From Eledone cirrhosa (Eukaryota), in NCBI GenBank assembly GCA_964016885.1, contig OZ024740.1, positions 126,666,001 through 126,730,000 on the forward strand: a stretch of 64,000 bases of DNA, read 5' to 3'. Positions 21,091 through 44,427 of the stretch are shown in pieces. The position numbers were made by a program, and so were the translations under genes. A model generated the notes under the pieces. That model was not told the origin of the DNA and ran no database searches. It saw nothing but the letters and a program-made list of their open reading frames with translations. The first letter of the stretch is position 1; every line of letters begins with the position of its first letter.

Positions 21091-21329
21091 TATACCCGTT
21101 GTCATCAATTTCCCCTCATAACTTGTCCATCTAGTAATTCAATTCTTTCCATTCTTTTTAATCCTACCTCTCTTCAATCGTAGCACCCCTCACATTTTTA
21201 TGCAAAATTCCATTTCTATGTCCGGACTGAATGTATGGTGCTTTAACCTAAATTGAAACAGGTGCTGAAACAGGTGCTGAAACAGGTGCTTTAACATAAA
21301 TTCCTCCTCACTCGTAACCAGCCTTTAAC

Positions 21330-22034
21330 TTTTTCAACACCAATGAAAGTGTAACCCTTCACAGTGCAAACAGCAAACGGGAAATACTGAGTCCCAGAAA
21401 TATTCTTCTCTTGGTCTTCAAAACACCCAAAGTTTATCTACATGATGTCAGCTGTCTTCAACTATCCATACTGCTCACCAGGAACAGACTAACGTTAGCC
21501 GCAATACCAAACATTTTCAACCATTCTACTATTAAACTATGTGGTGCTATGTCGTAAGACTTGCGGTAACCGATCCAGGCCATAGCAAGATCTGTATGGT
21601 TCATTTTACAATTTGTAATGATCGTTTTATCAATCAACATGCTCTTTCTCCTTGTTGTTATTTCCTCCTTGGACATCCCTTGGTCTATTGTCCTCTCCTT
21701 CAGTAAAATTCTGAGTATTGGCTCCTTACTATCAGTCACGTATTTGTGTAGGTTGTTTTTCTCCATCTGAACACAGTCCTCTATGCTGATAATACCTCTT
21801 CCACCTTCAGATCTCCTTAAGTAGAGTATATCGACATCACTCTTCTTGTGGAACATGTTGTAGATAGTCAATAGCTTCCTAGTCTTCCTATCCATTTCTT
21901 TTTGTTCAGCAACATTCCATCTCAGAATTCCCGCACAGTACCTAATAATAGACACAGCTCGGGAATTGACTGCACTTATGGTATTCCTACTGTTCAGATG
22001 TGACTTTAATACGCTCTTTATTCTCCGAATGTAT
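21330..22034 (-). mobile_element. Rearranged Dong/R4 family-A fragments
   Basis: ORF 21458-21955 is highly similar to two non-adjacent parts of the 621-aa ORF, joined in inverted order at ~21641. Confidence 0.85.
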
Positions 22035-22051
22035 TATTATTAGTATTATTA

Positions 22052-24741
22052 CAGCTGCATTTATCTTGCTTTATGTTCATACGAGTTATCACCAAGTCAC
22101 AACCAGTTACCTCAAGAGACAACAAGGTCCGCCATGTTCAAGAAAGAACATACATACTCACACATGCATCTTTAGTATTAAGACTTGTGATGTACTTATA
22201 TTGACAGAATCTTCCTTAGTATATGGGCAGTTCCCATTAGTACTATCTTTTGTATTTCTCCTATACGCGGGTTTCCTGGGATTTGCGATAAGTAATCATT
22301 AGACCCCTTAGGTATCATTCCTAGAGCGTCTACAACCACCGGTTTTGTTTTAGTTCTCAATTTCCACATTTTTCCAATTTCTATCTCCAGGTCCTTATAC
22401 TTGCTCAATTTTTCAAATGTTTTTATAGATACATTCTTGTCTATTGGAACGGACATATCAATTAGCAGGCATGCCCTCTTTTTAAAGTCCTTCAATATTA
22501 TATCAGGTCTATTTGCATCTATTTTTCGGTCTGTTTGGATGCTAAAGTTCCACAATATTGAGATGTGATCTTTTTCAAGTATGGGAGGTGGTTGATGCTC
22601 CCACCAATTCTTTTGATGGGCAGGTCAAAATGCTTACACTTATCCAATGTATGTATTGTGCAGCTCTGTCATGCCTGTTTAGGTATTCGGTTGGAGCTAT
22701 AGGACTGCACATTGAAATTATATGGTCAATGGTCTCTGGTTGGTTTTTATCTACACGGCATAATGGGCTGCATCCATTTTTTATTATGTTGGCTTGGTAA
22801 TCTTTTGTTGGCAGACACTGATCTTGTGCTGATATAATCAGTCCTTCAGTCTCTGATTTCAGTCCAGATGCCAACCACTGATGGGTTAAAGTTTTGTCAA
22901 CATCAGGATTGTTAGCTCGTTCTGGGTATTTTCCATACAGAGGCTTTTCTTGCAATTTCTTAGCCAGTTTCTGTAGCAGTTCTTTCTTTGCAGTAACTTT
23001 TACCTGCTTTGCTTTTTCTGTGTTTTCCATTTCAGCAGTAAATGGGACTTCTGAAATGTGTAGTCCATTACTGTATCTTTGTGCATTTTTTGTAATGGAG
23101 TATGATCTTTTGATGCTTTCGTGTTTCAAAACGAGTTTGATCATCCAATCATGTGATTCCCTTAGATATGTAGATAATCCAATTGTTGCAGTTTTCAACG
23201 CAATGTCTAACTGGATTAACCCACGTCCTCCTTCTTTCCTAGGGAGATATATTCTATCTGTATCTGCCTTAGGGTGATGCATTCTGTGCATGGTTAAGAA
23301 TTTTCGAATTTTTGTATCGAGCCTACGGATCTCTGTGCTTGACCAGTTGATCACATTGTAACCGTAGGTTACTACTGGTATGGCAAGCGTGTTTATGGCA
23401 TCGATCATATTCCTTGCATTCAATTCCGTTCTTAAGATTGGTCTTACTCTGCGGTAACATTCCTTCCTTATCCGTTCCCTCATTGTCGAGTGCTTAATTC
23501 CGTCTCCTTCACAAACACCTAGATATTTGTAAGTTTTCTGTTGATCAAGTTATCTTATCACATTCCCTCGATCAAGATTAATGTCTGAAACTTTCAGCAG
23601 CTTTCCTCTGGTGAACGTTGCTTTGGCGCATTTATCTAGTCGAAACTCCATTTTAATGTCATCACTGAACTGCTCCACAGTGGATAATAGGCCTTGCAAT
23701 TGTTCATCATTTTTTTGTAAATAGTTTCAGGTCATCCACGTAGAACAAGTGATTAATGGTTTTGTCATAGACTTTATATCCATGTTTTGTTTCATTGAGC
23801 ATTTTACTTAATGGTATAAGTGCGATGCAGAATAAAAGCGTTGATAAAGAGTCACCCAGAAAAATTCCACAATTAATATTAACTTCTCCAGCTTCCAGTG
23901 ATTTTGTTCCACTATTCAAAAGGAGTGTCGTTTTCCATGTCTTCATACTGAATGACAAAAACCTCCTGACATCGGTGGATATTTTGAAAATCTCTAAACA
24001 TATTTCAATCGAACTGTGTGGCAAACTATCGAATGCTTTTTTATAATCTATCCAAGCAATTGATAGATTTTTGTGTCTATTATGACAATCTTCCAGTATC
24101 ATTTTGTTAACCAAAAGCTGATCCTTACAGCCATATGAGCCTCGTTTACACACTTTCTGCTCAATAGGAAATAGGTCATTTGTAATCAGGTGGTCATATG
24201 TATATTCAGTTAGGACTGATGTTAAAGGTTTATACATTGTGGTCAAGCAAGTTATCGGTCTGTAATTTTTGGGATTGTTTGTCTCATCATTCTTCGGAAG
24301 CAGGAATGTAATGCCGTGACTAGCCATGATGGTATCTATTCTGGCTCCTTAACTATTTCATTGTAAAGTTGGGCGAACAGCTCATGAGACTCTGTGAAGG
24401 TATTTATCCAAACATTTTGTATTTTGTCTTTGCTGGTTTTTCTTAGAGCCAAGCGCAACTGTTCAACTGTTATATTTTCCCATGTTTGTTCCTCAAGGTG
24501 AGCTGTATCTTTCATTTGTCTGTCTATCCATGGGGCATGTATATTATGAATTTTTTCTTCGGCCCAGATCTTTTCCCAGAATTCTTGCACTTCCTCCTTG
24601 GGGGGTATTGATTTAGCAGTTATTGTTGACTTACCAAATTTTCTGTAGAAGTTTCTTTGGTTGGTTTTGAACATATTATTGTCCTTATAGAATCTAGATC
24701 GTTTTTCAAAGCGAGCAACTTTGGCCGACACTTTTTGCTTG
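22052..24741 (-). mobile_element. Dong/R4-clade non-LTR retrotransposon family B, 5'-truncated and disrupted
   Basis: NYRPITCL, WIDYKKAFDS, GIFLGDSLS, LFYVDDLKL, RHD, RPDIILKD..LIDMSVP..EKLSKY; (ATT)n on both sides. Confidence 0.92.
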
Positions 24742-24786
<45 letters not shown>

Positions 24787-24797
24787 GTTATTGTTAT
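24742..24797. repeat. (ATT)n target microsatellite between elements
   Basis: Direct inspection. Confidence 0.97.
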
Positions 24798-26737
24798 TCC
24801 TTGAATCTCAGTCATTGATGTTGGTTAACTGGAAAGTCCGTTGGATTGAATATCAAGCCACTACCTGCAGCCTCAGATATTCAAGACGTATCGGAGGGTT
24901 CTTGCTGTTCCAAGCAAGCATGCCTTTTGAAGCGTTCCAAAAAGCGTGAAGGGGCCGATTTTCTTTAACCATCCCTGGAAACCTTTGGAGATAGTCCCCA
25001 GTGCGCCTATGACAATCGGGATCACTTTGACTTCATGGCAGTTCCAAATCCTTTTCACCTCCCACTTTAGGTCCTGGTATCGGTTAATTTTCTCCCTCTC
25101 CTTCTCTTGCACTCTCGTGTCGAACGGGCAGGCCACATCCACAATCAGGCACGATCTTTTTTCTTTGTCCACAACCACCAGGTCAGGTCTATTGTGTTCC
25201 AGTTTTTTGTCCGTCTGTATCCTAAAATCCCACAGCACCTTCACCTGACTGTTCTCCATCACCGCCTCTGGCCTATGCTCATACCATTTCTCAGAATGTG
25301 GTAGATTGTTTACTTTGCACAGGTGCCAGTGGATCACCCTGCCCATCACATCGTGTCTCCAGCCCTTATAGTGGGTCTGGGCTAGGTGTTTACACTCGGA
25401 CACAATGTGAGCCACAGTCTCCTCTCTCTCTCCACAGATCCTGCACAGTGGGCTAGCCTCCTCCTTGTAGATATGGTGCTTCAACCACTTCGTTTTGAGG
25501 GCCTGCTCCTGCGCAGCCATTAGCATTCCTTCTGTAGCCTTTTTGAGGTCTCCTCTTCTCAACCAGTTCCATGTCTGTGGATCTCTAAATTCAGTTTTCT
25601 CAAAGAAGGTACTATGAAGGGATTTTCCCTTAAGGCTGCTCTTCCTCCTTGATGTTATTTCCTCCTTGGACATCCCCTGGCCTACTGTCCCCTCCTTCAG
25701 TACAGTTCTGAGCATTGGCTCCTTACTATAGGTCACGTATTTGTATAGATTGTTTTTCTCCATCTGAACACAGTCCTCTATGCTGATAAGACCTCTTCCA
25801 CCCTCAGATCTCCTTAGGTAGAGTCTATCGACATCACTCCTCTTGTGGAACATGTTGTAGATAGTCAATAGCTTCCTAGTCTTCCTATCCATTTCTTTTT
25901 GTTCAGCAACATTCCATCTCAGAATTCCCGCACTGTACCTAATAATAGACACAGCTCGGGAATTTACTGCGCTTATGGCATTTCTGCTGTTCAGATGTGA
26001 CTTCAATACGCTCCTTACTCTCCGAATGTATTCAGTTCTTAACAATTCCTTCATTCTTTTGTTCTTTATGCCATCAGCCTCCAGAACGCCCAAATACTTG
26101 TATCCTTCCTCAGAGTCAATTTCCTTTATCATCTCACCTGTTGGTATCTGGATCCCGTTACTTCTGCTCAACCTACCCCTCTTCATCACAATGACTCCAC
26201 ATTTACCAATACCAAACTGCATACATATATCACTGCTGAAAATACGGACAGTGTCAACAAGCACATCCAACTCCTTCTCACTTTTCCCGAAAAGCTTAAG
26301 ATCGTCCATGAAGAGGAGGTGATTGATGGTAAGCTCTCCCCTTCCCAACTTGTATCCTGCTCTCACTTTTCGCAGCATAATGGTCAAGGGCATCAGGGCA
26401 AGGACAAACAACAGAGGGGACAGGCTATCTCCCTGGAAGATACCTCTCTTGATCTTCACGCTTCCCAAGGATACTCCAGTTGATGTCAACTCTGTCTCCC
26501 AGGACCCCATACTCCTGCCCAGCAACTGTCTGATGTTATCTGCCACCCTGAAGATCTCCAGGCTTTTGGTGATCCAGGAATGAGGCACCATGTCAAATGC
26601 CTTTCTGTAGTCTATCCATCCCATGGCAAGATCAGTGTGTCTCCTCCTGCAATTCCCCATTACCATCTTATCAATAAGCAACTGGTCCTTTGTACCACGT
26701 GACTTCTTTCGGCATCCTTTCTGTTCGCCCGGTAACA

Positions 26738-26738
<1 letters not shown>
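24798..26738 (-). mobile_element. Dong/R4-clade non-LTR retrotransposon family A, 5'-truncated, young
   Basis: Uninterrupted RT-RLE ORF, short 3' UTR, (ATT)n on both sides. Confidence 0.95.
24873..26738 (-). CDS. Reverse transcriptase + CCHC zinc knuckle + restriction-like endonuclease (N-terminally truncated, 621 aa)
   Basis: [65 protein letters not shown]. Confidence 0.93.

Positions 26739-26741
<3 letters not shown>

Positions 26742-26790
<49 letters not shown>
26742..26790. repeat. (ATT)n target microsatellite
   Basis: Direct inspection. Confidence 0.97.
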
Positions 26791-26998
26791 GGCGACCTAC
26801 GTAGTAAATCGTATCATCGTGATTTCCGCAAAGGTTTGTTATTTGCGTTTGTTAAAAATTGCCATTTATGGAAAATGTTATTGTTAACTGTTTATAAGCG
26901 CACATACATAGTTTTCCGAAAAGGTCACCCAAAAAGATTGGGGCCTTGTGCCCAAAATATAAACATTTATGATTATCGAAAAATTTCTTTGAAAAAAA

Positions 26999-28785
26999 AT
27001 GGCTAAATCACCTCTGTACCAAGCAGCTGAGAGCCTTCCTCACAAATTAACACCTCACACCGACACCACCATTGTAAATATTACTACGTTTGCCAACATA
27101 AAAAATTTAAGCAGTAGCAATATTTTAAATTTGTCTCAGGCAGACATTCATTTGCTGCCATTACCAATGACTGCAGGAGTTAAAGCCGCCACCACCACCA
27201 GCATCGCGACCCCCCCCCCCCCCCACGCGACAACAGAAACAAAAGAAGAAAAAAATAAATTAAGTCGTGATGTCGAAATGAATTCAAGCAAAATGGACTC
27301 TTCCCCACCGAACACCACTGACGTCACCACCACCACAACTGAAACTAAAATTAATAATAACAAAAATAACGATAACAACAACAACAATAATGACATTAAA
27401 AAAACCACCCTGAGTTTTGCCAGAGTAGCAAAATAGTGCGAAGCATTTCAGGTAACTCAGGAGGAATTAGAAAATGCAAAAAAAATGGTAAAGAAAGATG
27501 GGTACAGGATCAGTCTCACCCCCATCCCCCCTTTATAAAATGGAGCATCGGCGCCTATGCACCGTGTCGTATAGAACAATTAATGTGAAATCGCGCCGAG
27601 TGGAACGGGCATCCGAGTCCCAAATCCAAAAAGCGTTGGGACATGTGTGGGCAAGAAGAACCCACATCAGACGTGGGCAGAAGTATGGAACCGTGGACGT
27701 GTTCTTTGAAACACGAGAGGAGGCTAGAGAACACTCCATGGCCCCATTAAGAAGTGACGACTGGGATGGAGCTCCTGATCCAAGCGGACCAAAAAAGCAT
27801 TGAGGAAATCCCAGAGGTAATAGACCTCACTGACGGCAGCCACCTCACCGTAATTGTCGAGGGCAGAAGGCCTTGGTGTGTCGTTTGTGGTGAAGGAACC
27901 CACCTAAGGGCTTTCTGCCCTCAGGCTAAAAGGTTGAGGCCACCTCTCCTACCCACACCAGTGACTCAACCATCAACACCACCAGTAGCAGAGATGGCAG
28001 CAACAACAGTAGCAGCAACAACAGAAGCAACTATAACAACAACAACCCCAGCAACAGTAGCAAAACCAACACCACCACCACCCAACGCTTCAGAACTAGC
28101 ACCAGCGCCTACACCATCCACCACGCCACAACCAAACCTAACGCCTGTGGAGGATTTTCCACTCCCCGGCCTATCACAAATGGAGTCAGATTGTGACGAC
28201 GAGGAGTGGGAAACGGTATCAGGAAAAAATAAAAAAAGAAACCGAAAAAGTAAAAATTCTCTTCCTTCCCCCTCCAAAAAGAAAATACAGAGGGAAACAA
28301 ATAAATTAACAAACAAAAAAGTTAGGACAGATATGCCACCATCCACACCAGCATCACCAACCTCATCACTCCAAACACCAACACAATCACCATCATTAAC
28401 CCCAGCACCTACACCACAAATGTCACCAAAATGCGAAACAGAAACAAACCCACAACAAACGCAAACAAAACAAAACAACCAAAACGATACACACTACACA
28501 GCATTAAATTTGAACAACAACCAATTATTACACTACATCCAACACAACACCAGCATCACAGAAAAAGACTACACAACAACCCAAAAATTGACACCACCTC
28601 CACACATACAAATCACTCGCATCACACAGAAAACGTACATGACACTAAAACAAAAATTCCCCAAAGACATCGGAGACTTCCGACAATCACTCTCCAGGAG
28701 GATTTATAAGGACATCCTTCCTGAGGAGGCCACAAGCAGTGAAAAGGATGGAAAAGCCGTCCTTCCTCTACGAGAAGTAAGGTAA
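26999..28785 (+). pseudogene. Tx1 ORF1 (gag-like; CCHC knuckle CVVCGEGTHLRAFC; Pro/Thr-rich and basic regions)
   Basis: ORF pieces 26999-27436, 27498-27760 and 27754-28785; stop, frameshift and a ~170-bp deletion relative to copy 2. Confidence 0.8.
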
Positions 28786-28819
28786 GTGGTCTTTCCCATC
28801 TTTTCCACTCCATTTCAAC

Positions 28820-31800
28820 ATGACCTCACTCAGAATAGGCAGCATAAATGCACGTGGCTTGGGGTCGTCATGGAAGCAGGGCCACCTACTCAACGACCTC
28901 AGGTCACTAAACATAGATGTAGTGGCCATCAGCGAGACCAGAATCAACGAAGCACGGGCTATCGCACCGATCTTCGGCGGCTACGATGTGTACGCATCTC
29001 CCAGCCGTCTGGGATCGGGGGGAGGAGTTGCTGTGCTTTTTCGGAGAGGTTTGGAACTTGCCATACGGGCCATCTTCCTGGAACCAGAAGGTAAGTTGGT
29101 GGTGCTGGACGTGACCAGCGGAGACGGGCAAGCTTTCAGGTTAGTGGCCGTCTATGCTCTGACAGGTGCAGGGTGGCCTGATTTATTCCGGCGTCTGGAG
29201 ACCTTTCTTGGAACGTCCCGCTCTTTAGTGTTAGTGGGCGACTGGAACGGGATCTTAGATGCACGCTGGGATTGTGTGGGATTAGTAGATAGGCGAGGAT
29301 GGTGCAAGAGTCTCACCAACCTGATCAGGCGTTTTGAACTGTCTGACAGGTAGCGATTGGATTTCCCGAATGTACCAATGTGGACTTGACAAATCGCATA
29401 GGGTCATCCAAATGATATCTAGATAGAGTATTTTGTAGGGAATAGATATGTCTAGCATAGGCTGTCCACAATTCAAGATAGTCAGCTACACGGACCACCA
29501 ATTCGTGATCTGTGTGCTTGACTTAGATAGGCTTCATAGACGAGGACCCAGCTACTGGAAGCAAAACACGTCCTTACCAGCGCGCAAGGCCTACAGAGAC
29601 GGTATTAGCGAACTAGTTAACCGGGCGTTGACGGGGGCCATCGTCAAAACAAGTGGTGGTTTGCTCTGAAAAGAGCAATTATAATAGAGTCCATTAGGTT
29701 TAGTAAGGCTTTAGCAATAGAGATAAATAGAACAGAGGGAGAATTAGTTAGAAAATTAGACGAGGCGCTTTGCAAAGGCATCGCGATGGACGTACTTGCG
29801 GCGAAATTGGCCCTTGACCAATTCTTCAATGCAAAGCACGAAGGCTGCGTTGTCAGAGCTAGGGTGCGTGCTCTCAGACACGAGGGTACGAAAGCGGTTC
29901 AATGGGCCCGAGTGGCGGAGGCGCGTCGTGGCAACAAAGCCACGATCCGGTCTTTGGTGGACCACGACGGGCGCGTGCTACTCGATCCCGGGAAAATGTG
30001 TGAAGCTTTTCAGCGACACTTCGCTCAACTGTTCGGGGGCAGCCGCGGGCCGGATCGAGGGATGGACTTTAGTGTCTACCTCGACGGACTGCCGCGGCTC
30101 TCGGCCACTGAGGCGGAGTGTTGCGAAAAGCAGATAACAGCTGCTGAAGTACGGGAGGCAATGACTGGCTGCACAAGGGGTAAATCGCCTGGTTTGGATG
30201 GTCTGCCCTATGAAATTTACGTACAAATGCCAGACTTGTTCGGGGGCCTCTTGGCGGATGTCTACTGCAACTGGCAACAGAACGGGAGAATTCCCAGCTC
30301 TGTGAGCCGAGGAGCGGTGGCGTTGCTGAGAAAGGATCCGAACAAGGGGGATAACATAGATAAGTTTAGGCCCATAACTCTGCTAAACACAGAGTTCAAG
30401 ATTTTGGCCAAGGTGCTAGCAAAGAGATTGGCGCTTGTCGTTGGTGGTCTGGTGGGAGAGGCGCAGACATGCGCCATTCCCGACAGATCCATCCACGACA
30501 ACCTCCACCTCATTCGATACATCTTAGAGAGGGTAGCTAGTGAACATGGCACGGGTGGTTCTTTGATAAATTTAGATCAGTCGAAAGCTTTCGATAGGGT
30601 CGACCAGCGTTACCTAGCGGCAGTCCTGAGGGCGGCTGGCTTTGGGCCCGTCTTCAGACGCTGGATCGCTGCAATGCACAGCGACATCTGCTCCGTGTTG
30701 AGAGTGAACGGTCACCTTTCGGAACCGTTCAACATCATGCGCTCGGTCCGCCAAAGATGTCCCCTCTCATCCCTCTTGTACGTATTGACTCTCGAGCCAT
30801 TACTGCACAAACTGGAGACATTGAGGGGGTTCCCGCCCGAACTAGGATGCGGAAGATCCGTGTCAGCATATGCGGACGATGTCACCGTAGTGGTGTAGAA
30901 CGCCAAACACATCGAGGCGATCGGCATTACACTAAGAGAATACGAAGCGGTGACAGGAGCAATGATCAACCAGGAAAAGTCAGTGGGCCTGCAGCTCGGC
31001 ACCTGGAGAAGCAGGTCCTTGCCGTCCAACAGCGTCGTCGGGCGCTGGACGGACGGACCGGTTAAATTGCTAGGGATCTAGTTCGGTCCGGACCTCCAGA
31101 CGGACAAAAACTGGGACGAGGTGATGGGCCGAGAGGAAGCTATCCCTGAAAGGTCGAGCGGAGGTGGCTAACGCGTACATCGCGTCCGTCATCTACTACG
31201 GCCTGACCGTCGTACCTTGTCCTAAGCCCCGCCTGATGCGCTGGAGCGTTGGCTCTTTCGCTTTTTGTGGAAGGGACGCGCTCCGATGGTCAGGCGGTCC
31301 ATCTGCTGTCAACACCCGCTACGTGGAGGGCTGGGCATGCCGTGGATGATGATGCGCAGACACGCGCTCAGGCTACGACATCTACACCTCTTCCTCGACG
31401 GTGATCAGGTGTGGTCGCCATTTGCTAGACACGTCTTTCCCCAGTTCGTCTCCTTGGCGGAGCTGCAGTCCTGGGTCAAGCGAAGACCGAGAGGGAGTGA
31501 TTGGAGACTGGAATGTCTTCAGGCGCTCACAGCCCTCGACCAATCGGGCAATGTGATCGGTGGAAACTCCACCTTGGCGTTCTATAGAGGATTAGTGGAG
31601 GGAAAGAGCGACGACATACTTGGAGAAACTCTATGCGTCGACAAAAATCAACTAGCCAATCTCTTCGGACGGACATTCGGGCCGGGGCCTTTGGACAACT
31701 TCCAGAAATCCCTGGACGGGCAGTGCTACCGGGGATCTTTGCCAATTCGGGATAAACTCTACAGGCATGGAGGTGTCGTCACCCGGGCAGGTCCGAGATG

Positions 31801-32209
31801 CGCACAGGGCGACGAAACCGTCCTGCACGCACTTGTCCAGTGTCCGAGCATTGATGACTTGTGGGTTTATGTCGAACACCTGCTGTCACGTGTAGGACGG
31901 ATCCGGCTATCAGCTGAGTCCATCGTGAGGATTGCCCCGCCCTCTTCCTTTAGCCGGGAAGGGCAGGCATTCTTTTTTATCTGTCTGGTGGCCATGGCGA
32001 AAGAGATAGTATGGTGGACACGTTTGAAAGGGCTGAAGACGAGCACTTACCTCTTCGGTGATGCCCTGATTAACTTTTTCAAATTTCATTTGAAAAGGAA
32101 AATCAGGGTAGAGTGGTAAGTGCTCTCTTCCCAGCATTTTGTTGAAAGATGGGTGAGAGAAGCCCGTATAGCCCGAGTGAATGGGCCTACTCTGAGTATG
32201 TGTCTGTAA
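28820..32209 (+). pseudogene. Tx1 ORF2 (APE endonuclease - RT - C-terminal zinc finger), disrupted
   Basis: SINARGL, ISET, GDWN, TDH; KSPGLDGLPYE, RPITLLN, DQSKAFDRV, YADD; CAQGDETVLHALVQC. Confidence 0.93.
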
Positions 32210-32467
32210 ATTAAAGGTGGAAAACTGGGAGAGGGCACTTGCCCTGGTGGTCAGGGCCACTGTAGTCTTTTAATGGGCTTTCTCCACAAATGTCCCTCGG
32301 AAGTCTCCCCCCTATTGGGTAATTTTTCTTTGTTATTTTATTTCAACCTCTGTTTTTTTACACGCAGAAATGCCCATTTGTACCGTCCTGTATTTTCCTG
32401 TACTGTCCTTAATGTCTACTTTATGTAAACCCTTGTGGTTAATAAAGAAAACATTATTATTATTATT

Positions 32468-32719
32468 TGTCTGTAAATTAAAGATGGAAAACTGGGAGAG
32501 GGCACTTGCCCTGGTGGTCAGGGCCACTGTGGTCTTTTAATGGGCTTTCTCCACAAATGTCCCTTGGAAGTCTCCCCCCTATTGGGGAATTTTTCTTTGT
32601 TATTTTATTTCAACCTCTGTTTTTTTACACGCAGAAATGCCCATTTGTACCGACCTGTATTGTCCTGTACTGTCCTTAATGTCTACTTTATGTCAACCCT
32701 TGTGGTTAATAAAGAAAAC
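32468..32719 (+). mobile_element. Tx1 family A, 3'-UTR-only truncated copy
   Basis: Near-identical to 32201-32452; flanked by short (ATT)n. Confidence 0.93.
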
Positions 32720-32741
32720 ATTATTATTATTATTATTATTA

Positions 32742-33320
32742 TCGACACACCTGCTGTCACGTGTAGGACGGATCCAGCTATCAGCTGAGTCCATCGTGAG
32801 GATTGCCCCGCCTCCTTCCTTTAGCCTGGAAGGGCAGGCAGTTTTTATCTGTCTGGTGGCCATGGCGAAAGAGATAGTATGGTGGACACGTTTGAAAGGG
32901 CTGAAGACGAGCACTTACCTCTTCGGTGATGCCCTGATTAACTTTTTCAAATTTCATTTGAAAAGGAAAATCAGGGTAGAGAGGGAAGTGCTCTCTTCCC
33001 AGCATTTTGTTGAAAGATGGGTGAGAGAATCAAGTATGGCCCGAATGAATGGGCCTTCTCTGAGTATGTGTCTGTAAATTAAGGGTGGAAAACTGGGAGA
33101 GGGCACTTTCCCTGGTGGTCAGGGCCACTGTGGTCTTTTAATGGGCTTTCTCCATAAATGTCCCTTGGAAGTCTCCCCCCTATTGGGGAATTTTTCTTTG
33201 TTATTTTATTTCAACCTCTGTTTTTTTTACACGCAGAAATGCCCATTTGTACCGTCCTGTATTGTCCTGTACTGTCCTTAATGTCTACTTTATGTGAACC
33301 CTTGTGGTTAATAAAGAAAA

Positions 33321-33321
<1 letters not shown>
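32742..33321 (+). mobile_element. Tx1 family A, 5'-truncated copy (ORF2 C-terminus + 3' UTR)
   Basis: Near-identical to ~31872-32452; flanked by (ATT)n. Confidence 0.93.
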
Positions 33322-33391
<70 letters not shown>

Positions 33392-33392
<1 letters not shown>

Positions 33393-34043
33393 TTGAGTCT
33401 CAGTCATTGATGTTGGTTAACTGGCAAGTTTGTTGAAATGAATATCAAGCCATTACCTGCAGCCTCAGATATACCGGATGTATCGGAGAGTTCTTGCTAT
33501 TCCCAGCAAGCATGCCTTTTGAAGTATTCCAAAAAGCGGGGCGGGGCCAATTTTCTTTAACCATTCCTGGAACCTTTTTGAGATAGTACCTAATGCGCCT
33601 ATGACAATCGGGACCACTTTGACTTCATGGCAGTTCCAAATCCTTTTTACCTTCAACTTTAAGTCCTGGTATCGGTTAATTTTCTCCCCCTCCTTGCACT
33701 CTTGTGTCGAATGGGCAGGCCAAATCCACAATCAGGCACGTTTTTTTTTCCTTGTCCAAAACCACCATGTCAGGTCTATTGTGTTCCAGTTTCTTGTCCG
33801 TCTGTATCCTAAAATCCCACAACACCTTCACCTGATCGTTTTCTATCACCGACTCTGGCTTATGCTCATACAACTTCTCAGAATGTGGTAAATTGTTTAC
33901 GTTGCATAGGTGCCAGTGGATCACCCTGCCCATCACATCATGTCTCCAGCCTTTATAGAGAGTCTGGGCTAGGTGTGTACACTCGGATACAATGTGAGCC
34001 ACAATCTCCTCTCTCTCTCCACAGATCCTGCACAGTGGACTAG
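33392..34043 (-). mobile_element. Dong/R4 family A, short 5'-truncated copy
   Basis: Homologous to 24800-25455 (RHD, RPD motifs; frameshift); (ATT)n on both sides. Confidence 0.93.
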
Positions 34044-34287
34044 TTCAATTATTATTATTATTATTATTAATATTATTATTGGTCTAAGCGGACGTATTTT
34101 GCTCGCTCACAGTAAGTCGCTTTATGTGCCTGTTAAAATTATTTGTTGTTAAATATTTCTTGTTGTGTAAGGGATATAAGCCCTTAGACTTTGCCCCGTG
34201 AAGGGGAAAGTATAATATTTGGGCCTTTTGGCCCAAATATTTGAATGTTTTTTTTACATGTTAAAAAATTTACGAAGAAAAAAAAAC

Positions 34288-35861
34288 ATGGGTGAGCCAC
34301 GAAGCTATAGGTCGGCTGTCGTGCGACAACGACGTAGAAGTTGAGAAGAGCGCTACAGCGAGATTAACACACATTGATAACACAAACACCACCACAAACT
34401 AGGTAAACAAAGACACCAATGATACCAATAAGAACTCTAATTTTGAAAAAATTACAGTAACAGCGACAACGAAAATACAGATAACAAAAAAAAACAAAAA
34501 ACAAATACAACAACAATATCAACACCACTAACATGAAAACAAATAGCGACAACACCAACAGCAACAATACCAACTGCACCGAGAACAACGGTGGCAACAA
34601 AGACAACAATGATAACAGTGACAGTGCTAACAACAACACCAACAAGAACAACGTCAACAACACCCCCAACGAAAACAACACCACTTTCGCTGCGGCAGCA
34701 GCAAAAAAGAGGCCATGCTTCAACATGGACCTCTCAAACAAAGATGAAAAGTTGGCCCAGGCATGGAAGCTCATCAAGCAAGAGCAAACTTGGGCCAATT
34801 TAACTGTTCCGGTAGAAGCTATTGAGGCAGTGGAGCGCAAAACGGTGCATTATAGATGCATCTCAGCACAAAGCAAAAGGGCAGCGTTAATCCCACAAGA
34901 AGATATCGAAGTCGCGCTGAGGTGCATCAGAGAAGACACCCAGTACATAGAGAGGAGCAGACAGTACGGCACCATTTCGGTGTTGTTCAAGTCAGAAGCC
35001 CTCGCTATGAAACACGCCATGACTCCTTGCAAAACCAGCAAGGTCATAATGTACGCCTCCCACATGGGAAAAAGAGCGGCCGTCTCCGCATTCCCAGAAT
35101 CCCACCAGGACTTGACATGTGGTGGCTTCTTGGATGTGTGATTGTGGAGGGGACGGATACACACACCAATAAAACCTTAAACATACATACAGACACACTT
35201 ACAGACACATACCCCTCATCTACCAGTAGTCAAAATGAGGGAAATACAAAATCCCCCAAAATACAACAAAGGAAACACAAAAAGAAAGAAAAAACTCAAC
35301 AAAGCACAAAAGCACCCACAATAAAAAACGCAGACACCACCCACGCAAACATCTCTCCAATAACACGAACATCAACACCACCATGACCATCACCAGAATC
35401 CCCCAAACGAAAACAACCGAAACAGATGCAAGAACAAATATACACACAAACATCTGAAACCACAGACACCGCACTCACAACAAACACAGATACAACCGAA
35501 ACAACACCACCAAAACAATCACCACCACAGCCATGCAAACAAATAAAATCACACCAACAAAACATACAAAACTTCGTGCTCGTCAGGAGGGCTAACAAGG
35601 AACTGATGGCCCTCGTAGCACGAAGTGAAAATATACAAAAGGAGGGGCAAATTTTTAAATCGAGCACATTTCGCGTGCCGGAAGATTTGGTTCTGGTGCG
35701 AGAGTCGCTCGACATATTCAAAGAAATACGAGCAGCTTTCCTCGGGACGTGGGAACCCCAAACGTAAAACCCACTTCAAGACTTTTAAAGGGGTTCCCAA
35801 AAGAAACCCCACTAACTATGGAGGTCGAACAACCCGACCTTCACAAGAGTCCGGAAGGTAA
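34288..35861 (+). pseudogene. Tx1 family B ORF1, fragmented
   Basis: Asn/Thr-rich N-terminus; YIERSRQYGTISVLF resembles family A HIRRGQKYGTVDVFF; multiple frameshifts. Confidence 0.65.
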
Positions 35862-35896
35862 CTAAACCTTCCTCTCTCTCTGTTTAACCTGCCAAC

Positions 35897-38800
35897 ATGG
35901 CCGTATTAAGAGTAGGATGTTTAAATGTTTGAGACCGGGGATCGTCCTGGAAGCAGGGTCACCTGCTCAACGACCTCAGGTCTATAGAAATGGATGTAAT
36001 TGCAGTCAGCGAGACCAGGATTTCCGACACATGCGCACTAGTCCCGATTTTCGACGACTATCACATCTTTGCACCTGTTAGCGGGCCGGGAATGGGAGGC
36101 GGGGTGGCAGTGCTGTCTAGGAAAGGCCTGGATCTCGAGGTAAGGTCGATCTTCCGGGACCAGGACGGGAAGTTCGTGGTCCTGGACGTGAACAATAACG
36201 AAGGCAGTGCCTTTAGACTGGTGGCCGTCTATGCTCCTACTGGGGCAGGACGGCCGGACTTCTTTAGACCCCTAGAAAACTTTCTGGGTACGTCTCGCCC
36301 TTTACAGTTAGCAGGGGACTGGAACAGCATCTTAGACGCAAGCTGGAACTGTGTGGGAGTATCCGATAGGAGCGGGGGTTGCAAAAGCCTCAAGAAGCTG
36401 ATCAGCCAGTTCCAACTGTCTGACAGGTACCGACTACATTTCCCTAATGCGCCAGTGTGGACCTGGGCTAACCGCATAAGTTCATCTAGATAGTATATAG
36501 ACGGGATATTCATTAAGAAAATAGACAGAAATAGTGTAAGCTGTCCACGTTTTGAAACGGTCGCCTATTCAGATCACAAGTTTGTGATCTGCATGGTCGA
36601 CCTAGATAAGACGCGTAGGTTAGGACCTGGTTACTGGAAGCTAAACATGTCATTTCCGGCACGTAAGGCTTACAGGGACCAGATCAACAATTTAGTTAAG
36701 AAAAAGTTGACAGGGGGATTTGTCAACAATAGATGGTGGGGGGCTCTCAAAAGAGAGATTAGAGTAATGTCGATAGAGTTTAGCAAAGAAGTAGCATTAG
36801 AGACAAATAGAAAGGAGGAGGAGTTGGTAAATAAGTTAGACGAGGCTATTCGTAGTGGCATTGCAACTGATGTGCTAGCGGCGAGAATGTCATTAGACCA
36901 TTTCTTCAATGCGAAACACGAAGGTTGCATTGTCAGAGCTAAGGCGCGTGCTCTGAGAAACGAGGGAACCAAAGCTGTTCGATGGACCCGCGTGGCAGAG
37001 GCGCAGCGTGGTAATAAAACCACGATTCGGTCTTTGACGGACCGAGACGGACACGAGCTGAGCGATTCCAAGAGGATGTGTGAGCCCTTTCGCCAACATT
37101 CTGCCCTGAACTTTACGTACAGATGCCAGACTTGTTCGGAGGCCTCTTGGCGTATGTCTACTGCAACTGGCAACAGAACGGGATAATTCCCAGCTCTGTG
37201 AGCAGAGGAGCTGTGGCGCTGCTGAGAAAGGATCCGAACAAGGGGGATAACATAGATAATTTCAGGCCCATAACTCTGCTCAACACAGAGTTTCAGATTT
37301 TGGCCAGGGTGTTAGCGAAGAGGCTGGCGCTTGTCGTCGGGGATTTGGTTGGGGAGGCGCAAACTTGCGCAATCCCAACCAGGTCCATACACGACAACCT
37401 CCACCTAATACGATACATCATAGAGAGCGTAGGGTGTAAACCTGGCTTCGGTGGGGCTCTGATCAATTTAGATCAATCGAAAGCATTCGATAGGGTCGAC
37501 CATCGGTATCTGGAGGCTGTCCTCAAGGCGGCTGGCTTCGACCCCGTCTTCAGAAGCTGGATCGCTGCAATGCACAGCGGCACCTGCTCGATGGTCAAAA
37601 TTAATGGCCACCTCTCGGAACCGTTTCAGGTCTCCCGATCGGTCCGTCAAGGGTGCCATCTCTCCTCCCTTCTGTACGTATTGACTCTTGAGCCTTTGCT
37701 ACGGAAGCTGGAGCTGTTGCAGGGCATCCCGCTCGAACCGGGACGTGGAAAGGCGGTGTCGGCTCATGCGGACAACATCACCGTGATTGTGTCGGACACC
37801 TCAGAAATCGAGGTGGCCGGCAACTTATTGGAGGAATATGAAAGTTTGACGGGAGCAAAACTTTACCCGGAAAAGTCAGTAGGCTTGCAACTCGGCACCT
37901 GGAGAGGCAAGTCCATGCCGTCCAACAGCGTCGTTAGGCGCTGGACGGGCGTACCGGTAAAATTGCTAGGGGTTTGGTTCGGGCCAGACCTCCAGGTGGA
38001 TAAGAATTGGGACGAGGTGATGGGCAGGGTAGTCAGTGTCACCCAGAAATGGGCTGGGATGAAGCTATCACTGAAAGGTCGGGCGAAGGTGGCGAACGCG
38101 TACATCGCGTCCGTCATCTACTACCCTATGACTGTCGTCCCTTGCCCCCGTCCGTGCCTCGCCATCTTGGAGCGGCTCCTCTTCAAATTCTTGTGGAGGG
38201 GTCAGGTTCCGCTGGTGAGGCGGTCCATCTGCTGCCAGCACTCTCTACGTGGAGGGCTGGGCATGCCGTGGCTAATGATGCGCAGGCACGCGCTCAGTCT
38301 GCGGCATCTACAGATATTCTGCCTAAACGGTGAACAGGTGTGGTCACCGTTTGTCAGACGGGCCTTTCCGCAGCTCGTTTCTTTGACTGACTTGCAGTCC
38401 TGGGTCAAGAAGAGACCGAAACCTGGTGACTGGAATCTGGAATGTTGCCAGGCACTCACTGCCCTCTACCAGGCGAGCAATGCGGTCAGTGGAACTTTCA
38501 CTCTCGAGTTCTATAGAGGATTAGTGGTGGGCAAGTGCGACTACGCACTCGGAGAGGCTCTGGGAGTCAACGAAGTCGAACTAACCAGTCTGTACCGCAG
38601 GACTTTCGAGCCGGGGACGATAGATAATTTCCAAAAATCCCTCGCTTGGCAGTGCTACCGGGGGCACTGCCGGTTCGAGTTAAACTCTACAGGCACGGAA
38701 GTGCTGTCAGACGGAACTGCCCGAGAGTCGCGCAGAGCGACGAAACCGTTCTGCACGCACTCGTCCAGTGTCCGTGTATTACTGACTTGTGGAGTTATGT

Positions 38801-39121
38801 TGAACAGCTGTTGTCGCGTGTAGAACGGATCCGGCTATCGGCCGAGTCCATAGTGAAGATCGACCCGCCGCCTTCTTTTGGCCAGGAAGGGCAGGCAATT
38901 TTCCTCTGTCTGGTGGCAGTAGCGAATGACGTTGTATGGTGGACGAGGTTGAAAGGACTGAAGACAGACACTTTTCACTTCGGTAAATCCCTCATCAACT
39001 TTTTCAAGTTTCACTTGGAAAAGAAGGTGAGGGTGGAGAGAGAAGTGTATTTGCTGAAAGGTGGGTGAATGTGGCGAGAATGGCCCGTGTGAGTGGGCCT
39101 ACACTGGTCATGCGGCTGTAG
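35897..39121 (+). pseudogene. Tx1 family B ORF2 (APE-RT), disrupted
   Basis: VSET, VYAP, GDWN, SDH, YWKLN, RPITLLN, DQSKAFDRV, SVRQGC; catalytic motif decayed to HADN; internal deletion near 37100. Confidence 0.92.
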
Positions 39122-39410
39122 GTAGGTAAATTTGAAGAGGAGAGAGTTGCACTTCCAGGGTGCTCTCGAAGCGTCGGGTCGTTCAGGACTGGTGGGGTAC
39201 CAGAGCAAAACCTAGGTGGTCATCCCCCCTATTGGGGAATTTTTTTTCTTGTTGTAATTTTATTGTTACTTTATTGTTACGTTGTTATTGTTACTTTGTT
39301 TATTCATATTGATTACTCGATTTTTCTGTAAAACCCAACTGTCCCAGTCTTTTGTATTGTCCCCGATATGTCGGCCCGTGTGGCCAATAAATGAAATCAT
39401 TATTATTATT

Positions 39411-42400
39411 GGCGACCTACGTAGTAAATCGTGATCTCCGCAAAGGTTTGTTGTTTTCGTTTGTTAAAAATTGCCATTTATGGAAAATTTTATTGTTAAC
39501 TGTTTATAAGCGCACATACATTGTTTTCCGAAAAGGACACTCAAAAAGATTGGGGCCTTGTGCCCAAAATTTAAACATTTATAATTATCAAAAAAAAATT
39601 CTTTGAAAAAAAAACATGGAAGTCCCACAGCCACACGAAGCTGAGAGCCTTCCTCACAAACTAACACCTCACACCGACACCACCATTGTAAATATTACTA
39701 CGTTTGCCAACACAAAAAATTTAAGCAGTAGCAATATTTTAAATTTGTCTCAGGCAGACATTCATTTCCCGCCATTACCAATGACTGCAGGTGTTAAAGC
39801 CGCCACCATGACCACCACCGCGACAACCACCACCCCCACCACCACCGCGACAAGAGAAACAAAAGGAAAAAATAAATCAACTCGTGATGTCGAAATATTT
39901 TCAACCAAAATGGACTCTTCCACACCGAACACCACTGACGTCACGACCACCACAACTGAAACTAAAATTAATAATAACAAAAATAACGATAACAACAACA
40001 GCAACAATGACATTAAAAAAACCACCCTGAGTTTTGCCAGAGTAGGAAAACAGTGCGAAGCATTTACGGTAACTCATGAGGAATTAGAAAATGCCAAAAA
40101 AATGGTAAAGAAAGATAGGTACAGGGTCAGCCCCCCCCCCCCCCCCCCCCCCCCCCAGCAACACCTAATAAAATGGAGCATCGCGCCTATGCACAGTGTC
40201 GCATCGAACAATTAATGTAAAATTGCGCCGAGTTGAACGGGCATCCGAGTCCCAAATCCAAAAAGCTTTGGGACATGTGTGGGCAAGAAAAACCTACATC
40301 AGACGTGGGCAGAAGTATGGCACCGTGCACGTGTTCTTTGAAACAACAGACGAGGCTAGAGAACACTCCATGGCCCCATTAAGAAGTGACGACTTCACAC
40401 TCGTCCCAAGCTATTGTGGCCAGAGACTCGTAAAGATCAGGGGGACCCACGTTCCACCGGCCATCGAAATTCCCTGGCTAATAGCGGCCGTCCTCGCCGG
40501 CATCGAAGATAACACCAAGATAATACCAATAGCAAAAGAAAAGCAGGAGAACTGGTCCGGTTCTGGGATGGAGCTCCTGATCCAAGCGGACCAAAAAAGC
40601 ATTGAGGAGATCCCAGAGGTAATAGACCTCACTGACGGCAGCCACCTCACCGTAATTGTCGAGGGCAGAAGGCCTAGGTGTGTCGTTTGTGGTGAAGGAA
40701 CCCACCTAAGGGCTTCTGCCCTCAGGCTAAAAGGTTGAGGCCACCTCGTCTACCCACCCCAGTGACTCAACCATCAAGACCACCAGTAGCAGAGATGGCA
40801 GCAACAACTGTAGCAGCAACAACAGAAGCAACTATAACAGCAACAACCCCAGCAACACTAGCAAAACCAACACCACCACCACCAGCAAAACCAACACCAC
40901 CACCACCCAACGCTTCAGAACTAGCACCAGCGCCTACACCATCAACAACGCCACAACCATAACTAACGCCTGTGGAGGATTTTCCACTCTCTGGCCTATC
41001 ACAACTGGAGTCAGATTGTGACGACGAGGAGTGGGAAACGGTATCAGGAAAAAAGAAAAAAAGAAACCAAAAAAGAAAAATTCTCTTCCTTCCCCCTCCA
41101 AAAAGAAAATACAGAGGGAAACAAATGAATTAACAAAAAAAAAAAGGTAGGAGAGATATGCCACCATCCACACCAGCATCACCAACCCCATCACCCCAAA
41201 AACCAACACCATCACCTACACCACAAATGTCACCAAAATGCGAAACAGAAACAAACCCACAACAAACGCAAACAAAACAAAACAACCAAAACGATACACA
41301 CTACACAGCATTACATTTGAACAACAACCAATTATTACACTACATCCAACACAACACCAGCATCACAGAAAAATACTACACAACAACCCAAAAATTCACA
41401 CCACCTCCACACATACAAATCACTCGCATCACACAGAAAACGTACATGACACTAAAACAAAAATTCCCCAAAGACATTGGAGACTTCCGACAAGCACTCT
41501 CCAGGAGGATTTATAAGGACATCCTTCCTGAGGAGGCCACAAGCAGTGAAAAGGATGGAAAAACCGTCCTTCCTCTAACGAAGTAAGGTAAGTGGTCTTT
41601 CCCATCTTTTCCACTCCATTTCAACATGACCTCACTCAGAATAGGCAGCATAAATGCGCGTGGCTTAGGGTCGTCATGGAAGCAGGGCCACCTGCTCAAC
41701 GACTTCAGGTCACTAAACATAGATGTAGTGGCCATCAGCGAGACCAGAATCAACGAAGCACGGGCCTTCGCACCGATCTTCGGCGGCTACGATGTGTACG
41801 CAATCTCCCAGCGGTCCGGGATCGGCAAATGTGTGAAGCTTTTCAGCGACACTTTGCTCAACTGTTCGGGGGCAGCCGCGGGCCGGATCGAGGGATGGAC
41901 TTTAGTGTTTACCTCGACGGACTGCCGCGGCTCCCGGCCACTGAGGCGGAGTGTTGCAAAAGTCGATAACAGCCACTGAAGTACGGGAGGCAATGACTGG
42001 CTGCACAAGGGGTAAATCGCCTGTTTGGATGGTCTGCCCCATGAACTTTACGTACTAACCCAGACTTGTTCGGAGGCCTCTTGGCGGACGTCTACTGCAA
42101 CTGGCAACAGAACGGGAGAATTCCCAGCTCTGTGAGCCGACGAGCGGTGGCGCTGATCAGAAAGGATCCGAACAAGAGGGATATCATAGATAATTTTAGG
42201 CCCATAACTCTGCTAAACACAGAGTTCAAGATTTTGGCCAAGGTGCTAGCAAATAGGTTGGCGCTTGTCGTTGGTGGTCTGGGGGGAGAGGCGCAGACAT
42301 GCGCCATTCCCGACAGATCCATCCACGACAACCTCCACCTCATGCGATACATCGTAGAGAGGGTAGCTAGGGAACCTGGCACGGGCAATGTGATCGATGG

Positions 42401-43280
42401 AAACTCCACCTTGGCGTTCTATAGAGGATTAGTGGAGGGAAAGAGCGACGACGTACTTGGAGAAACTCTATGCGTCGACAAAAATCAACTAGCCAATCTC
42501 TTCGGACTGACTTTCAGGCCGGGGCCTATGGACAACTTCCAGAAATCCCTGGCCTGGCAATGCTACCGGGGAGCTTTGCCAATTCGGGATAAACTCTACA
42601 GGCATGGAGGTGCCGTCACCCGGGCAGGTCCGAGATGCGCACAGGGCGACGAAACCGTCCTGCACGCACTCGTCCAGTGTCCGACCATTGATGACTTGTG
42701 GGTTTATATTGAACACCTGCTGTCACGTGTAGGACGGATCCGGCTATCAGCTGAGTCCATCGTGAGGATTGCCCCACCCTCTTCCTTTAGCCGGGAAGAG
42801 CAGGCAGTTTTTGTATCTGTCTGGTGGTCATGGCGAAAGAGATAGTATGGTGGACACATTTGAAAGGGCTGAAGACGAGCACTTACCTCTTCGGTGATGC
42901 CCTGATTAACTTTTTCAAATTTCATTTGAAAAGGAAAATCAGGGTAGAGAGGGAAGTGCTCTCTTCCCAGCATTTTGTTGAAAGATGGGTGAGAGAAGCA
43001 CGTATGGCCCGAGTGAATGGGCCTACTCTGAGTATGTGTCTGTAAATTAAAGGTGGAAAACTGGGAGAGGGCACTAGCCCTGGTGGTCAGGGTCACTGTG
43101 GTCTTTTAATGGGCTTTCTCCACAAATGTCCCTCGGAAGTCTCCCCCCTATTGGGGAATCTTTCTTTGTTATTTTATTACATCCTCTGTTTTTTTTACAC
43201 GCAGAAATGCCCATTTGTACCGTCCTGTATTGTCCTTAATGTCTACTTTATGTAAACCCTTGTGGTTAATAAAGAAAACC
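39411..43280 (+). mobile_element. Tx1 family A, copy 2 (both ends present, two ~1-kb internal deletions in ORF2)
   Basis: Same 5' end GGCGACCTACG as 26791; jumps at ~41826 and ~42385 relative to copy 1; (ATT)n on both sides. Confidence 0.93.
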
Positions 43281-43327
43281 TTATTATTATTGTTATTATT
43301 ATTATTATTATTATTATCATTATTATT

Positions 43328-43507
43328 GAATTGGCACTATCGGTAGAGGGTCGGACGCCATGCTTTAGCGCAGAGAGTTATGGCCCTTGCCATTCTGAGT
43401 TCAAATCCCGCCGACGTAAACTCCGCCTTTCATCCCTACGGGTTCGATACAATAAAGTACCAGTAATGCACTGGTTTAATGTTGGCCATGTGCTAAAAGT
43501 AGAAACA
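43328..43507 (+). mobile_element. SINE with Pol III box motifs, (ATT)n-flanked
   Basis: TGGC..TCGG A-box-like and GAGTTCAAATC B-box; homologous to the copies at 44017 and 48022. Confidence 0.8.
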
Positions 43508-43527
43508 ATTATTATTTTAGATGAAGA

Positions 43528-43991
43528 TGTTGTCACCAATGTGGTAGAGAATAGTATATTTAGAGTTAGGTAGGGTTGCCACGAGGAACCAGATTTGGTA
43601 GAGAGATATGATAGGAATATCGACAACGACTTAAGCTTGTTTTTACATTATTTATTAACAATTGGTTAATAAGTGAATTAAGTTGGCATGCCAAGAGAAA
43701 TGAAATAGTTCAATTAAGATTACAAGAGAAAATACGGTCGACTGGCTGAGGCGTTTGGCCAGGCCGTAGTGATATTTGTTGCTACATATTGTCTATGCTT
43801 GAGGAACGAAATCAAGAGATGTTTACCTTCACGGTGTTGAGCTGCAAGTCATAGCGTCCTCAAATCTTTGCGGGCTATTTCTCCCTCAGAACGCGTAGGG
43901 ATACATCTTCTTCTACTGGCGCTGATTGGCTGAGCTGAGCCAAATCACGCACAGAGAATGTATGTGAGCCCGCGGAATGTGGGTCACTACA
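43528..43991 (-). mobile_element. Possible solo LTR
   Basis: TG...CA ends with imperfect inverted termini (TGTTGTCACC / GGTCACTACA); CCAAT and AATAAA on the minus strand; no clear TSD. Confidence 0.4.
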
Positions 43992-44016
43992 TTATCATTA
44001 TTATGTTTATTATTAG

Positions 44017-44202: not shown

Positions 44203-44427
44203 ATTATTATTTATTTCTTTATAAAACAAATAATGTTTGTTTCTTTAATATGAGCAAGTGTTCATCCAGTATTTCTAATTGTTTAAAAGATGAGTAACAC
44301 CTTGCCTTCGTATTTATGAATATGTATATGGACGCAATAACATAAAATTACGTGTTCATGCACGTGCATGTGAGAGTTTATTTGTGCCCGTGTATGTGTG
44401 TGTGTGTGTGTGTGTGTCTGTGGGTGT

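Follow-up and report, generated by a model that had tools for sequence, protein, structure and literature searches.

A stack of LINEs in an (ATT)n microsatellite

The stretch analysed here, 64,000 nucleotides (nt) of the Eledone cirrhosa genome (assembly GCA_964016885.1, contig OZ024740.1, positions 126,666,001 to 126,730,000, forward strand) and called the window below, contains an end-to-end stack of retrotransposons with (ATT)n tracts at their junctions. Between 22,051 and 43,507 (positions are those of the whole window) we mapped eight long interspersed nuclear elements (LINEs) and one short interspersed nuclear element (SINE) against natural full-length copies from the same genome. Families A and B encode an apurinic/apyrimidinic-type endonuclease (APE) and a reverse transcriptase (RT) and are referred to as Tx1-like; families C and D are Dong/R4-like elements with a restriction-like endonuclease (RLE). 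In the stack all Tx1-like copies lie on the plus strand and all Dong/R4-like copies on the minus strand, and genome-wide flanks indicate that both classes insert into the same microsatellite in opposite orientations. The element map thus bears out the strand rule proposed in a first-pass annotation of this DNA. That annotation had also counted at least nine LINEs and a SINE; the SINE is there, and the LINEs number eight, or nine if a minus-strand C fragment at 21640-22031 is included.

The features of the array and of its left edge are as follows.

20630-21092, plus: old Tx1-like (APE-class) open reading frame 2 (ORF2) fragment, 76% identical to B by blastn and matching A by tblastn; best copy compared 79%; ends without an ATT tract
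21151-21676, minus: rearranged, degraded Dong/R4-like RT pieces, 44% identical to the family C protein by tblastn
21640-22031, minus: internal fragment of family C without the 3' end, 93% identical to a full C copy; no tract at 21640
22032-22050, plus: impure (ATT)n where the 3' tail of D meets the 5' junction of the C fragment
22051-24741, minus: family D, Dong/R4-like RLE LINE, 5'-truncated; RVT_1, RHD and RPD motifs; 34% protein identity to C
24742-24798, plus: (ATT)15 with two GTT variants, where the 3' tail of C meets the 5' junction of D; in the sense of the element these are AAC variants, which recur in 26 of 30 C tails
24799-26740, minus: family C, Dong/R4-like RLE LINE, young, 5'-truncated, frame open to the C-terminus; RVT_1, CCHC, RHD and PD..D motifs; best match elsewhere 99.6%
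26741-26788, plus: (ATT)16 between the 5' ends of C and A; cannot be a 3' tail
26789-32452, plus: family A, full-length L1-group (Tx1-like) LINE with ORF1, an APE-RT-CCHC ORF2 with frameshifts, a 3' hairpin motif and AATAAA
32453-32467, plus: (ATT)5
32468-32719, plus: 3' fragment of family A, 252 bp, a separate insertion with 7 mismatches to the neighbouring A end and 98.8% identity to copies elsewhere
32720-32741, plus: (ATT)7
32742-33321, plus: 3' fragment of family A, 580 bp
33322-33393, plus: (ATT)22 or more, between A and C, which stand tail to tail
33394-34047, minus: family C, older subfamily, 5'-truncated; 90% identical to young C, best match 93.4%
34048-34080, plus: impure (ATT)11 between the 5' ends of C and B; cannot be a 3' tail
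34081-39398, plus: family B, near full-length L1-group (Tx1-like) LINE with APE and RT; 71-77% nucleotide identity to A over ORF2
39399-39410, plus: (ATT)4
39411-43280, plus: family A with both ends present and two internal deletions
43281-43327, plus: impure (ATT)n
43330-43507, plus: SINE bearing the shared 3' motif; (ATT)3 comes next, at 43508-43516

Tracts begin at 22032, 24742, 26741, 32453, 32720, 33322, 34048, 39399 and 43281, within 1 nt of the positions annotated before, and again at 43508, 3' of the SINE. From 22,000 to 43,520 there are eight tracts of (ATT)4 or longer and no (AAT)4 or longer; the remaining 42.5 kb of the window has one and none. The earlier description of a tract at every junction holds from 22,032 rightwards and fails at the leftmost joints, where the C fragment adjoins degraded RLE pieces, with the old Tx1-like piece beyond, and no tract lies between. 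Seven of the nine inner tracts could be explained as 3' tails alone, and within the window only those at 26741 and 34048 prove that the repeat is a target.

The copies differ in their best-match identity elsewhere, from 99.6% for the C copy at 24799 through 87% for the SINE to 79% for the old Tx1-like piece. Local tandem duplication of a 267-bp A end was considered as a source of the repeated A fragments and ruled out by the distinct sequences of the A ends. The four A 3' ends differ from one another by 6-10 mismatches per about 250 bp, and the two short pieces match copies elsewhere (98.8%) better than each other; they are therefore separate insertions.

The 5' target of the APE families

A natural open copy of family A contains the Pfam domains Exo_endo_phos, RVT_1 and zf-RVT. 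Its best solved relative is human L1 ORF2p (E = 1e-42, against 1e-17 for R2), and the Tx1-like families have the two-ORF layout of the L1 group, with APE, RT and CCHC in ORF2. The coding sequences thus point to an L1-group affinity for A and B, with Tx1-like as a label. No protein with the name Tx1, R4 or Dong came up in homologue, representative, cluster and atlas searches, which gave only hypothetical proteins of Argonauta hians at 59-69% identity. Within family A a single type of ORF2 is combined with at least two different 5' halves, and a B/A chimera turned up once.

Counts in the 3.0-Gb genome were made with exact end-sequences, and flanks were sampled as the first matches along two contigs, C1 and C2, not as random draws. 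The first 21 bases of family A occur at 1,687 sites, 1,629 of them directly after TTATT (about 0.4% expected by chance). ATTATT exactly adjoins the 5' end in all 30 A copies and all 30 B copies sampled on C1 and in all 20 B copies sampled on C2, so that the junction is exact in all 80 sampled A/B 5' ends. A', a subfamily of A with a different 5' half, starts at ATT|G in 5 of 5 copies, as do the 16 full-length copies in an unbiased sample of 30 A 3' ends (9 others were short and 5 unplaced). The pyrimidine-rich targets of the Kibi/Koshi lineage, (TC)n or (TTC)n, were not seen; the A/B flank is (ATT)n.

Upstream of 60 A/B 5' tracts on C1 we found 24 Tx1-like tails, 8 SINE tails, 3 tails of a further abundant LINE family, which we take from its C-terminus to be CR1-like, and 25 flanks of none of these kinds, 11 of which were by eye Dong 5' junctions. 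Since 46 of these 60 tracts begin at the tails of other elements or at Dong 5' junctions, the 5' repeat is a pre-existing target. We conclude that ATT is the target of these families and not merely their tail. The first-pass annotation had named mostly non-ATT 5' flanks, with the repeat as a 3' tail only, as the outcome that would speak against targeting; genome-wide, the 5' flanks are ATT for the APE families and AAT for the RLE families.

The 5' target of the Dong/R4-like families

The natural open frames of C and D encode 1,141 and 1,185 amino acids, respectively, with RVT_1 and no Exo_endo_phos. Each is a single frame with RT followed by CCHC and RHD/PD..D motifs, the R4/Dong layout of RT, then CCHC and an RLE, without APE. 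The closest solved proteins are R2 proteins, including over the C-terminal nuclease stretch. The two families share 34% protein identity; the starts of their 5' untranslated regions are about 76% alike over 350 bp.

AATAAT lies at most 8 nt upstream of 635 of 774 full-length C and D 5' ends, counted at reverse-strand sites only, with the overlapping forward counts left out. Insertion in the sense of the TAA repeat, a trait of R4/Dong elements, is thus found in both families. Among 30 sampled full-length 5' ends, 25 have at least three AAT units within 15 nt, and in only one do two whole units abut the element exactly. AAT precedes 12 of 14 short truncated C copies; the pooled truncated C junctions comprise 54 with AAT, none with ATT and 30 with neither, many of the 30 being alignment breaks. 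Dong junctions are ragged and the full-length Tx1-like ones exact. A fixed 5' phase for Dong has weak support, with TAA| in 6 of 8 unambiguous junctions and frequent microhomology. The tracts 5' of full-length Dong copies are long, with a median length of 18 units (n = 30); for tracts that follow Tx1-like tails the median is 9 (n = 85).

At many Dong 5' junctions the AAT tract and the element are separated by (AAG)n or by a brief repetition of the element's first bases, which may reflect slippage during junction formation or a long target duplication. Among 53 Dong ends with a non-library flank, one clear target duplication in unique DNA and two short possible ones were seen. The clear case is a truncated C copy on contig C1 (at about 26.096 Mb), in which some 80 bp of downstream unique flank is repeated at the 5' junction, together with more rearranged pieces.

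Orientation and arrays genome-wide

Around 20 B anchors on contig C2, 22 Dong copies lie on the opposite strand and 2 on the same strand, whereas other Tx1-like copies are found 14 times on the same strand and 3 times on the opposite one. The exceptions comprise abutting ATT and AAT tracts, an inverted joint and one old fragment. SINE copies around these anchors are divided 10 against 8. Four other arrays of about 24-28 kb show the same polarity; they were picked in hit-dense regions and are a biased choice. Two apparent opposite A/A pairs on contig C1, at 46.02 and 88.47 Mb, are explained by an inverted joint and by two arrays that are separate from each other, with ATT kept at every 5' end. 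Together with the truncated C junctions, the C2 anchors and the other arrays show an orientation that is not random, and the genome-wide flanks support the earlier proposal that APE and RLE elements converge on one microsatellite in opposite, class-specific orientations. The 22-kb stack itself is ordinary for this genome.

The SINE and the shared 3' ends

The SINE, which may resemble the MetaSINE superfamily, is very abundant: the 23 bases at its 3' end have 154,174 exact matches genome-wide, so that there are at least 154,174 copies. A 5' (ATT)3 was present in only 8 of 79 sampled copies, which rules the SINE out as a tract specialist; its earlier listing as part of the stack is right in that it lies in the array, and would be wrong as a statement of tract specificity. 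Target duplications of at least 10 bp were found in 38 of the 79 copies (10-20 bp, mode 16), against 64 of 6,162 controls. They start with ATTAT, and at non-tract sites C precedes them in 20 of 33 cases against a background of 24% (p = 6e-6). Because duplications were looked for from the tail outwards, an ATTAT start is favoured by the search itself, and the preceding C is not. We conclude that the SINE inserts at short C|ATTAT sites with duplications of about 16 bp. Two further copies lie outside the array, at 44016-44202 and 48022-48205, with ATT-rich flanks, the second with a 19-bp duplication containing one mismatch.

The 3' ends of the SINE, of A and B and of one more Tx1-like element have in common a CTTGT loop in a short stem, followed by GAAAN(C/A) and ATT. 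The stems differ and still pair: AACC/GGTT in A, GGCC/GGCY in B and TGGC/GCCA in the SINE. A partnership between Tx1-like LINEs and the SINE is likely, to judge from these motifs. LINE ends recreate C|ATTATT, the type of site that the SINE prefers.

The ends of family A run directly into NCATTATT in 7,934 of 9,671 cases, and none of 30 was followed by poly(A), although AATAAA lies just upstream. The AAC variants that recur in the C tails stand next to the element (in the same 26 of 30), suggesting that the repeat is carried in the RNA template, and the RNA of A seems to carry repeat at its 3' end too. The count of (ATT)6 tracts covered those with A, C or G as the preceding base; of these, 19,831 of 44,308 begin at the shared GAAAN(A/C) end, against 52 for a reversed-pattern control. 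The CR1-like family likewise has a C-(ATT)n end. Among the first 30 long ATT tracts, 7 begin at such an end, and the family thereby provides sites for family A.

Other features of the window

An old remnant of an RLE C-terminus (19873-20226, minus strand, 33% identical to C) is found 400 bp to the left of that old Tx1-like fragment and has the polarity of the Dong copies in the array. At 58603-64000, and on to 64826 by window count, there is an inverted repeat with 2.74-kb arms that are 99.5% identical and a 746-bp spacer. It carries a frame with a YRDD RT motif, a GIY-YIG-like C-terminus and a single frameshift near 62,800; no Pfam domain was matched, and from its motifs we take the frame to be Penelope-like. 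An Rfam scan of 20,000-49,000 returned only sub-threshold matches, on dinucleotide repeats.

A model for the array and its rivals

In target-primed reverse transcription, an insertion in the ATT sense primes on the AAT strand and one in the AAT sense on the ATT strand. The observed insertion senses would therefore place the priming sites of the APE and Dong elements on opposite strands. The first-pass annotation had both classes nick opposite strands; this stands for the priming strand, and strand selectivity of the enzymes themselves would be a further supposition. That there is genuine targeting, by whichever determinant, we hold with high confidence. As a fuller account we think it probable, from the sequences of the junctions and ends, that the stack arose by separate insertions into one (ATT)n, with the APE LINEs (A, A' and B) entering in its ATT sense and the Dong/R4-like RLE LINEs (C and D) in its AAT sense, and that it is likely growing.

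In this model the priming nick would lie in the AAT strand for APE elements and in the ATT strand for Dong elements. Each RNA would carry at its end a small number of units of its own repeat (AUU or AAU), and pairing of these with the primer would set the orientation. The APE protein would recognise the 3' hairpin (a 4-bp stem and the loop CUUGU), which is also on the SINE, and would hence mobilise the SINE. The footprints of the SINE in unique DNA would reveal a cut geometry that pure repeat masks, with a first nick on the bottom strand at 5'-ATAAT/G or ATAAT/A and a second cut about 16 bp further. The tails of SINE, Tx1-like and CR1-like elements would seed new ATT tracts, and each insertion would leave fresh repeat at both its ends, so that an array could grow; the self-renewing target proposed in the first-pass annotation is supported to this extent.

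Several observations weigh against parts of this account. Other arrays contain joints of one element body to the next without a tract; these are probably deletions. The nine short A copies are looser in their choice of site, four following an ATT tract, four no tract and one AAT, the wrong polarity. No clear target duplication in unique DNA was found among 28 Tx1-like LINE ends, and the 16-bp geometry is thus taken over from the SINE, whose ATTAT start is itself favoured by the tail-anchored search. The 3' hairpin, about 30 shared nt with a 4-bp stem, has no significant fold z-score, and its outer stem pair is broken in 56 of 130 SINE ends. The SINE occupies short sites and the full-length LINEs long tracts, and the partner of the SINE could be a different or older LINE. 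Finally, the CR1-like family also ends in ATT.

The targeting might instead be set by the endonucleases alone, each selective for a strand: the first cut would be made in the AAT strand only by the APE and in the ATT strand only by the RLE, and the tail of the RNA would be incidental. The C before the SINE duplications fits such an enzyme read-out, as it lies outside the SINE tail, whose base at that position is A. So does the exact ATT|G phase in all 80 sampled copies, which a fixed second cut would give, and textbooks give endonuclease specificity as the determinant in Tx1 and R1 elements (PMC4494074). However, TpA steps occur on both strands of the repeat, the tails of C are demonstrably carried in the template, and the same enzyme would have to take 6-bp sites for the SINE yet require long tracts for its own RNA. 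We regard this alternative as rather unlikely.

Far less probable is that there is no real targeting and that elements whose RNA has repeat at either end insert at many kinds of site, the arrays arising through survival, recombination or tandem duplication. The 5' repeats could in principle be co-transcribed, inverted and deleted joints are evidence of recombination of arrays, and truncated A copies are less strict. Truncated Dong copies, however, lack the 5' leader and still follow AAT, 46 of the 60 Tx1-like 5' tracts touch the end of another element, and neighbours are unlike in family, length and age. An assembly artefact, in which repeats were collapsed or mis-joined at ATT tracts, we consider scarcely credible. 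Reads and contigs of five public runs bridged no tract at 43100-44380 or 33940-34180, where repeat copies swamped the signal and the method of contig building skips repeats. Against an artefact, the copies are individually distinct, like arrays occur at many places, and an exact, class-specific junction phase over more than 1,600 loci is not expected from mis-joins.

Starting from the model of repeat-tailed RNAs, a wider scheme can tentatively be drawn, which we think somewhat doubtful. One APE machine would have two specificities, depending on the RNA it carries. With its own RNA it would insert precisely and almost only into long (ATT)n; with the SINE, a mimic of the CUUGU hairpin with AUUAU as its short tail, it would use 6-bp C|ATTAT sites genome-wide. 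The choice of site and strand would then be largely a matter of RNA-DNA pairing. The SINE, among the most abundant in the genome, and the LINEs would be the origin of a large part of the long ATT microsatellites, the landing pads for 20-30-kb arrays of opposite-facing APE and Dong elements all over the genome.

These results add (ATT)n to the targets of L1-group APE retrotransposons, on genome-wide counts rather than a few copies. With two enzyme classes on opposite strands of one 3-bp repeat, the shares of endonuclease and of RNA-DNA pairing in the choice of site and strand can be separated, a question also relevant to retrotransposon-based gene writing. They put forward a candidate for what drives a cephalopod SINE of very high abundance, and they name a source of numerous ATT microsatellites. 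In this genome ATT/AAT markers are often element ends, and arrays of 20-30 kb make trouble for short-read assembly and insertion calling.

Comparison with known systems

Opposite-facing families in a simple repeat are familiar from the SART and TRAS elements, APE-type members of the R1 clade that form arrays in insect telomeric (TTAGG)n. The present case resembles them in having elements of two kinds in one simple repeat, facing in opposite directions and forming arrays. Unlike SART and TRAS, which are both APE elements at telomeres, it opposes APE and RLE elements at interspersed sites.

Dong of Bombyx mori, DongAg and DongBg, from silkmoth, mosquito and snail, are R4-clade RLE elements in TAA repeats (PMC3812793, PMC3774820), and Dong-R4 and L1-Tx1 elements are reported to be abundant and partly recent in octopus (PMC13282606, PMC8967140). 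C and D share with Dong the single ORF with RT, CCHC and RLE and the sense-strand TAA/AAT target; they differ in their copy number here, which runs into the thousands, in belonging to two families with only 34% identity, and in being stacked with elements of the APE class. A ribozyme like that of hepatitis delta virus (HDV) has been shown at the 5' end of silkmoth Dong (PMC3774820). For C and D no HDV-like 5' ribozyme was found by Rfam or by a strict descriptor, the latter run with no positive control, and the fold z-score was 0.84.

Tx1 families are found on other microsatellites, Kibi on (TC)n, Koshi on (TTC)n and crocodilian families on (TTCC)n/(TTTC)n (PMC4494074). A and B are like these in being L1-group APE-RT-CCHC LINEs in a microsatellite, in fixed orientation. 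They are unlike them in their (ATT)n target, which is absent from the available text of that paper and is shared with an RLE clade. The literature searched contained no ATT-specific Tx1-like family; Repbase and the target lists in the figures and supplement of PMC4494074 lay outside that search, so a prior description is possible. The available parts of PMC10294476, PMC9115989, PMC13580325 and PMC5035012 do not mention an ATT-specific Tx1 either.

Convergence of the two endonuclease classes on one target has a precedent in Keno, an APE element of the Tx1 clade, and Utopia, an RLE element, which reached the same site in genes encoding U2 small nuclear RNA in parallel (PMC4640811). That precedent lessens the surprise of the present case, which likewise has two endonuclease classes evolved in parallel onto one target, and tandem insertions are known for Keno and Utopia too. 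Those elements have the same 3' flank and the same direction in a low-copy gene, whereas here the directions are opposite and the repeat is renewed by the elements themselves.

For the SINE, the closest parallel is Tx1-Mar, a crocodilian Tx1-type LINE proposed to mobilise SINEU; some SINEs there have a weaker target preference than the LINE (PMC4494074). That link was drawn from shared targets and 5' heads; here it is a shared 3' hairpin motif and tail, on a SINE with 154,000 copies or more. SINE-LINE pairs are recognised by stem-loops that bear compensatory changes (PMC3747384, PMC4824008, PMC4758252), and the MetaSINE superfamily is defined by a tRNA-derived head and a 66-bp Meta domain (PMC4824008). 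There are thus precedents for every ingredient, and Dong on TAA, Tx1 on other microsatellites and the convergence of APE and RLE elements are already published. The new parts are the ATT target of an L1-group APE lineage, its opposite polarity with Dong on one self-renewing repeat genome-wide, and a candidate connection with a SINE of very high copy number.

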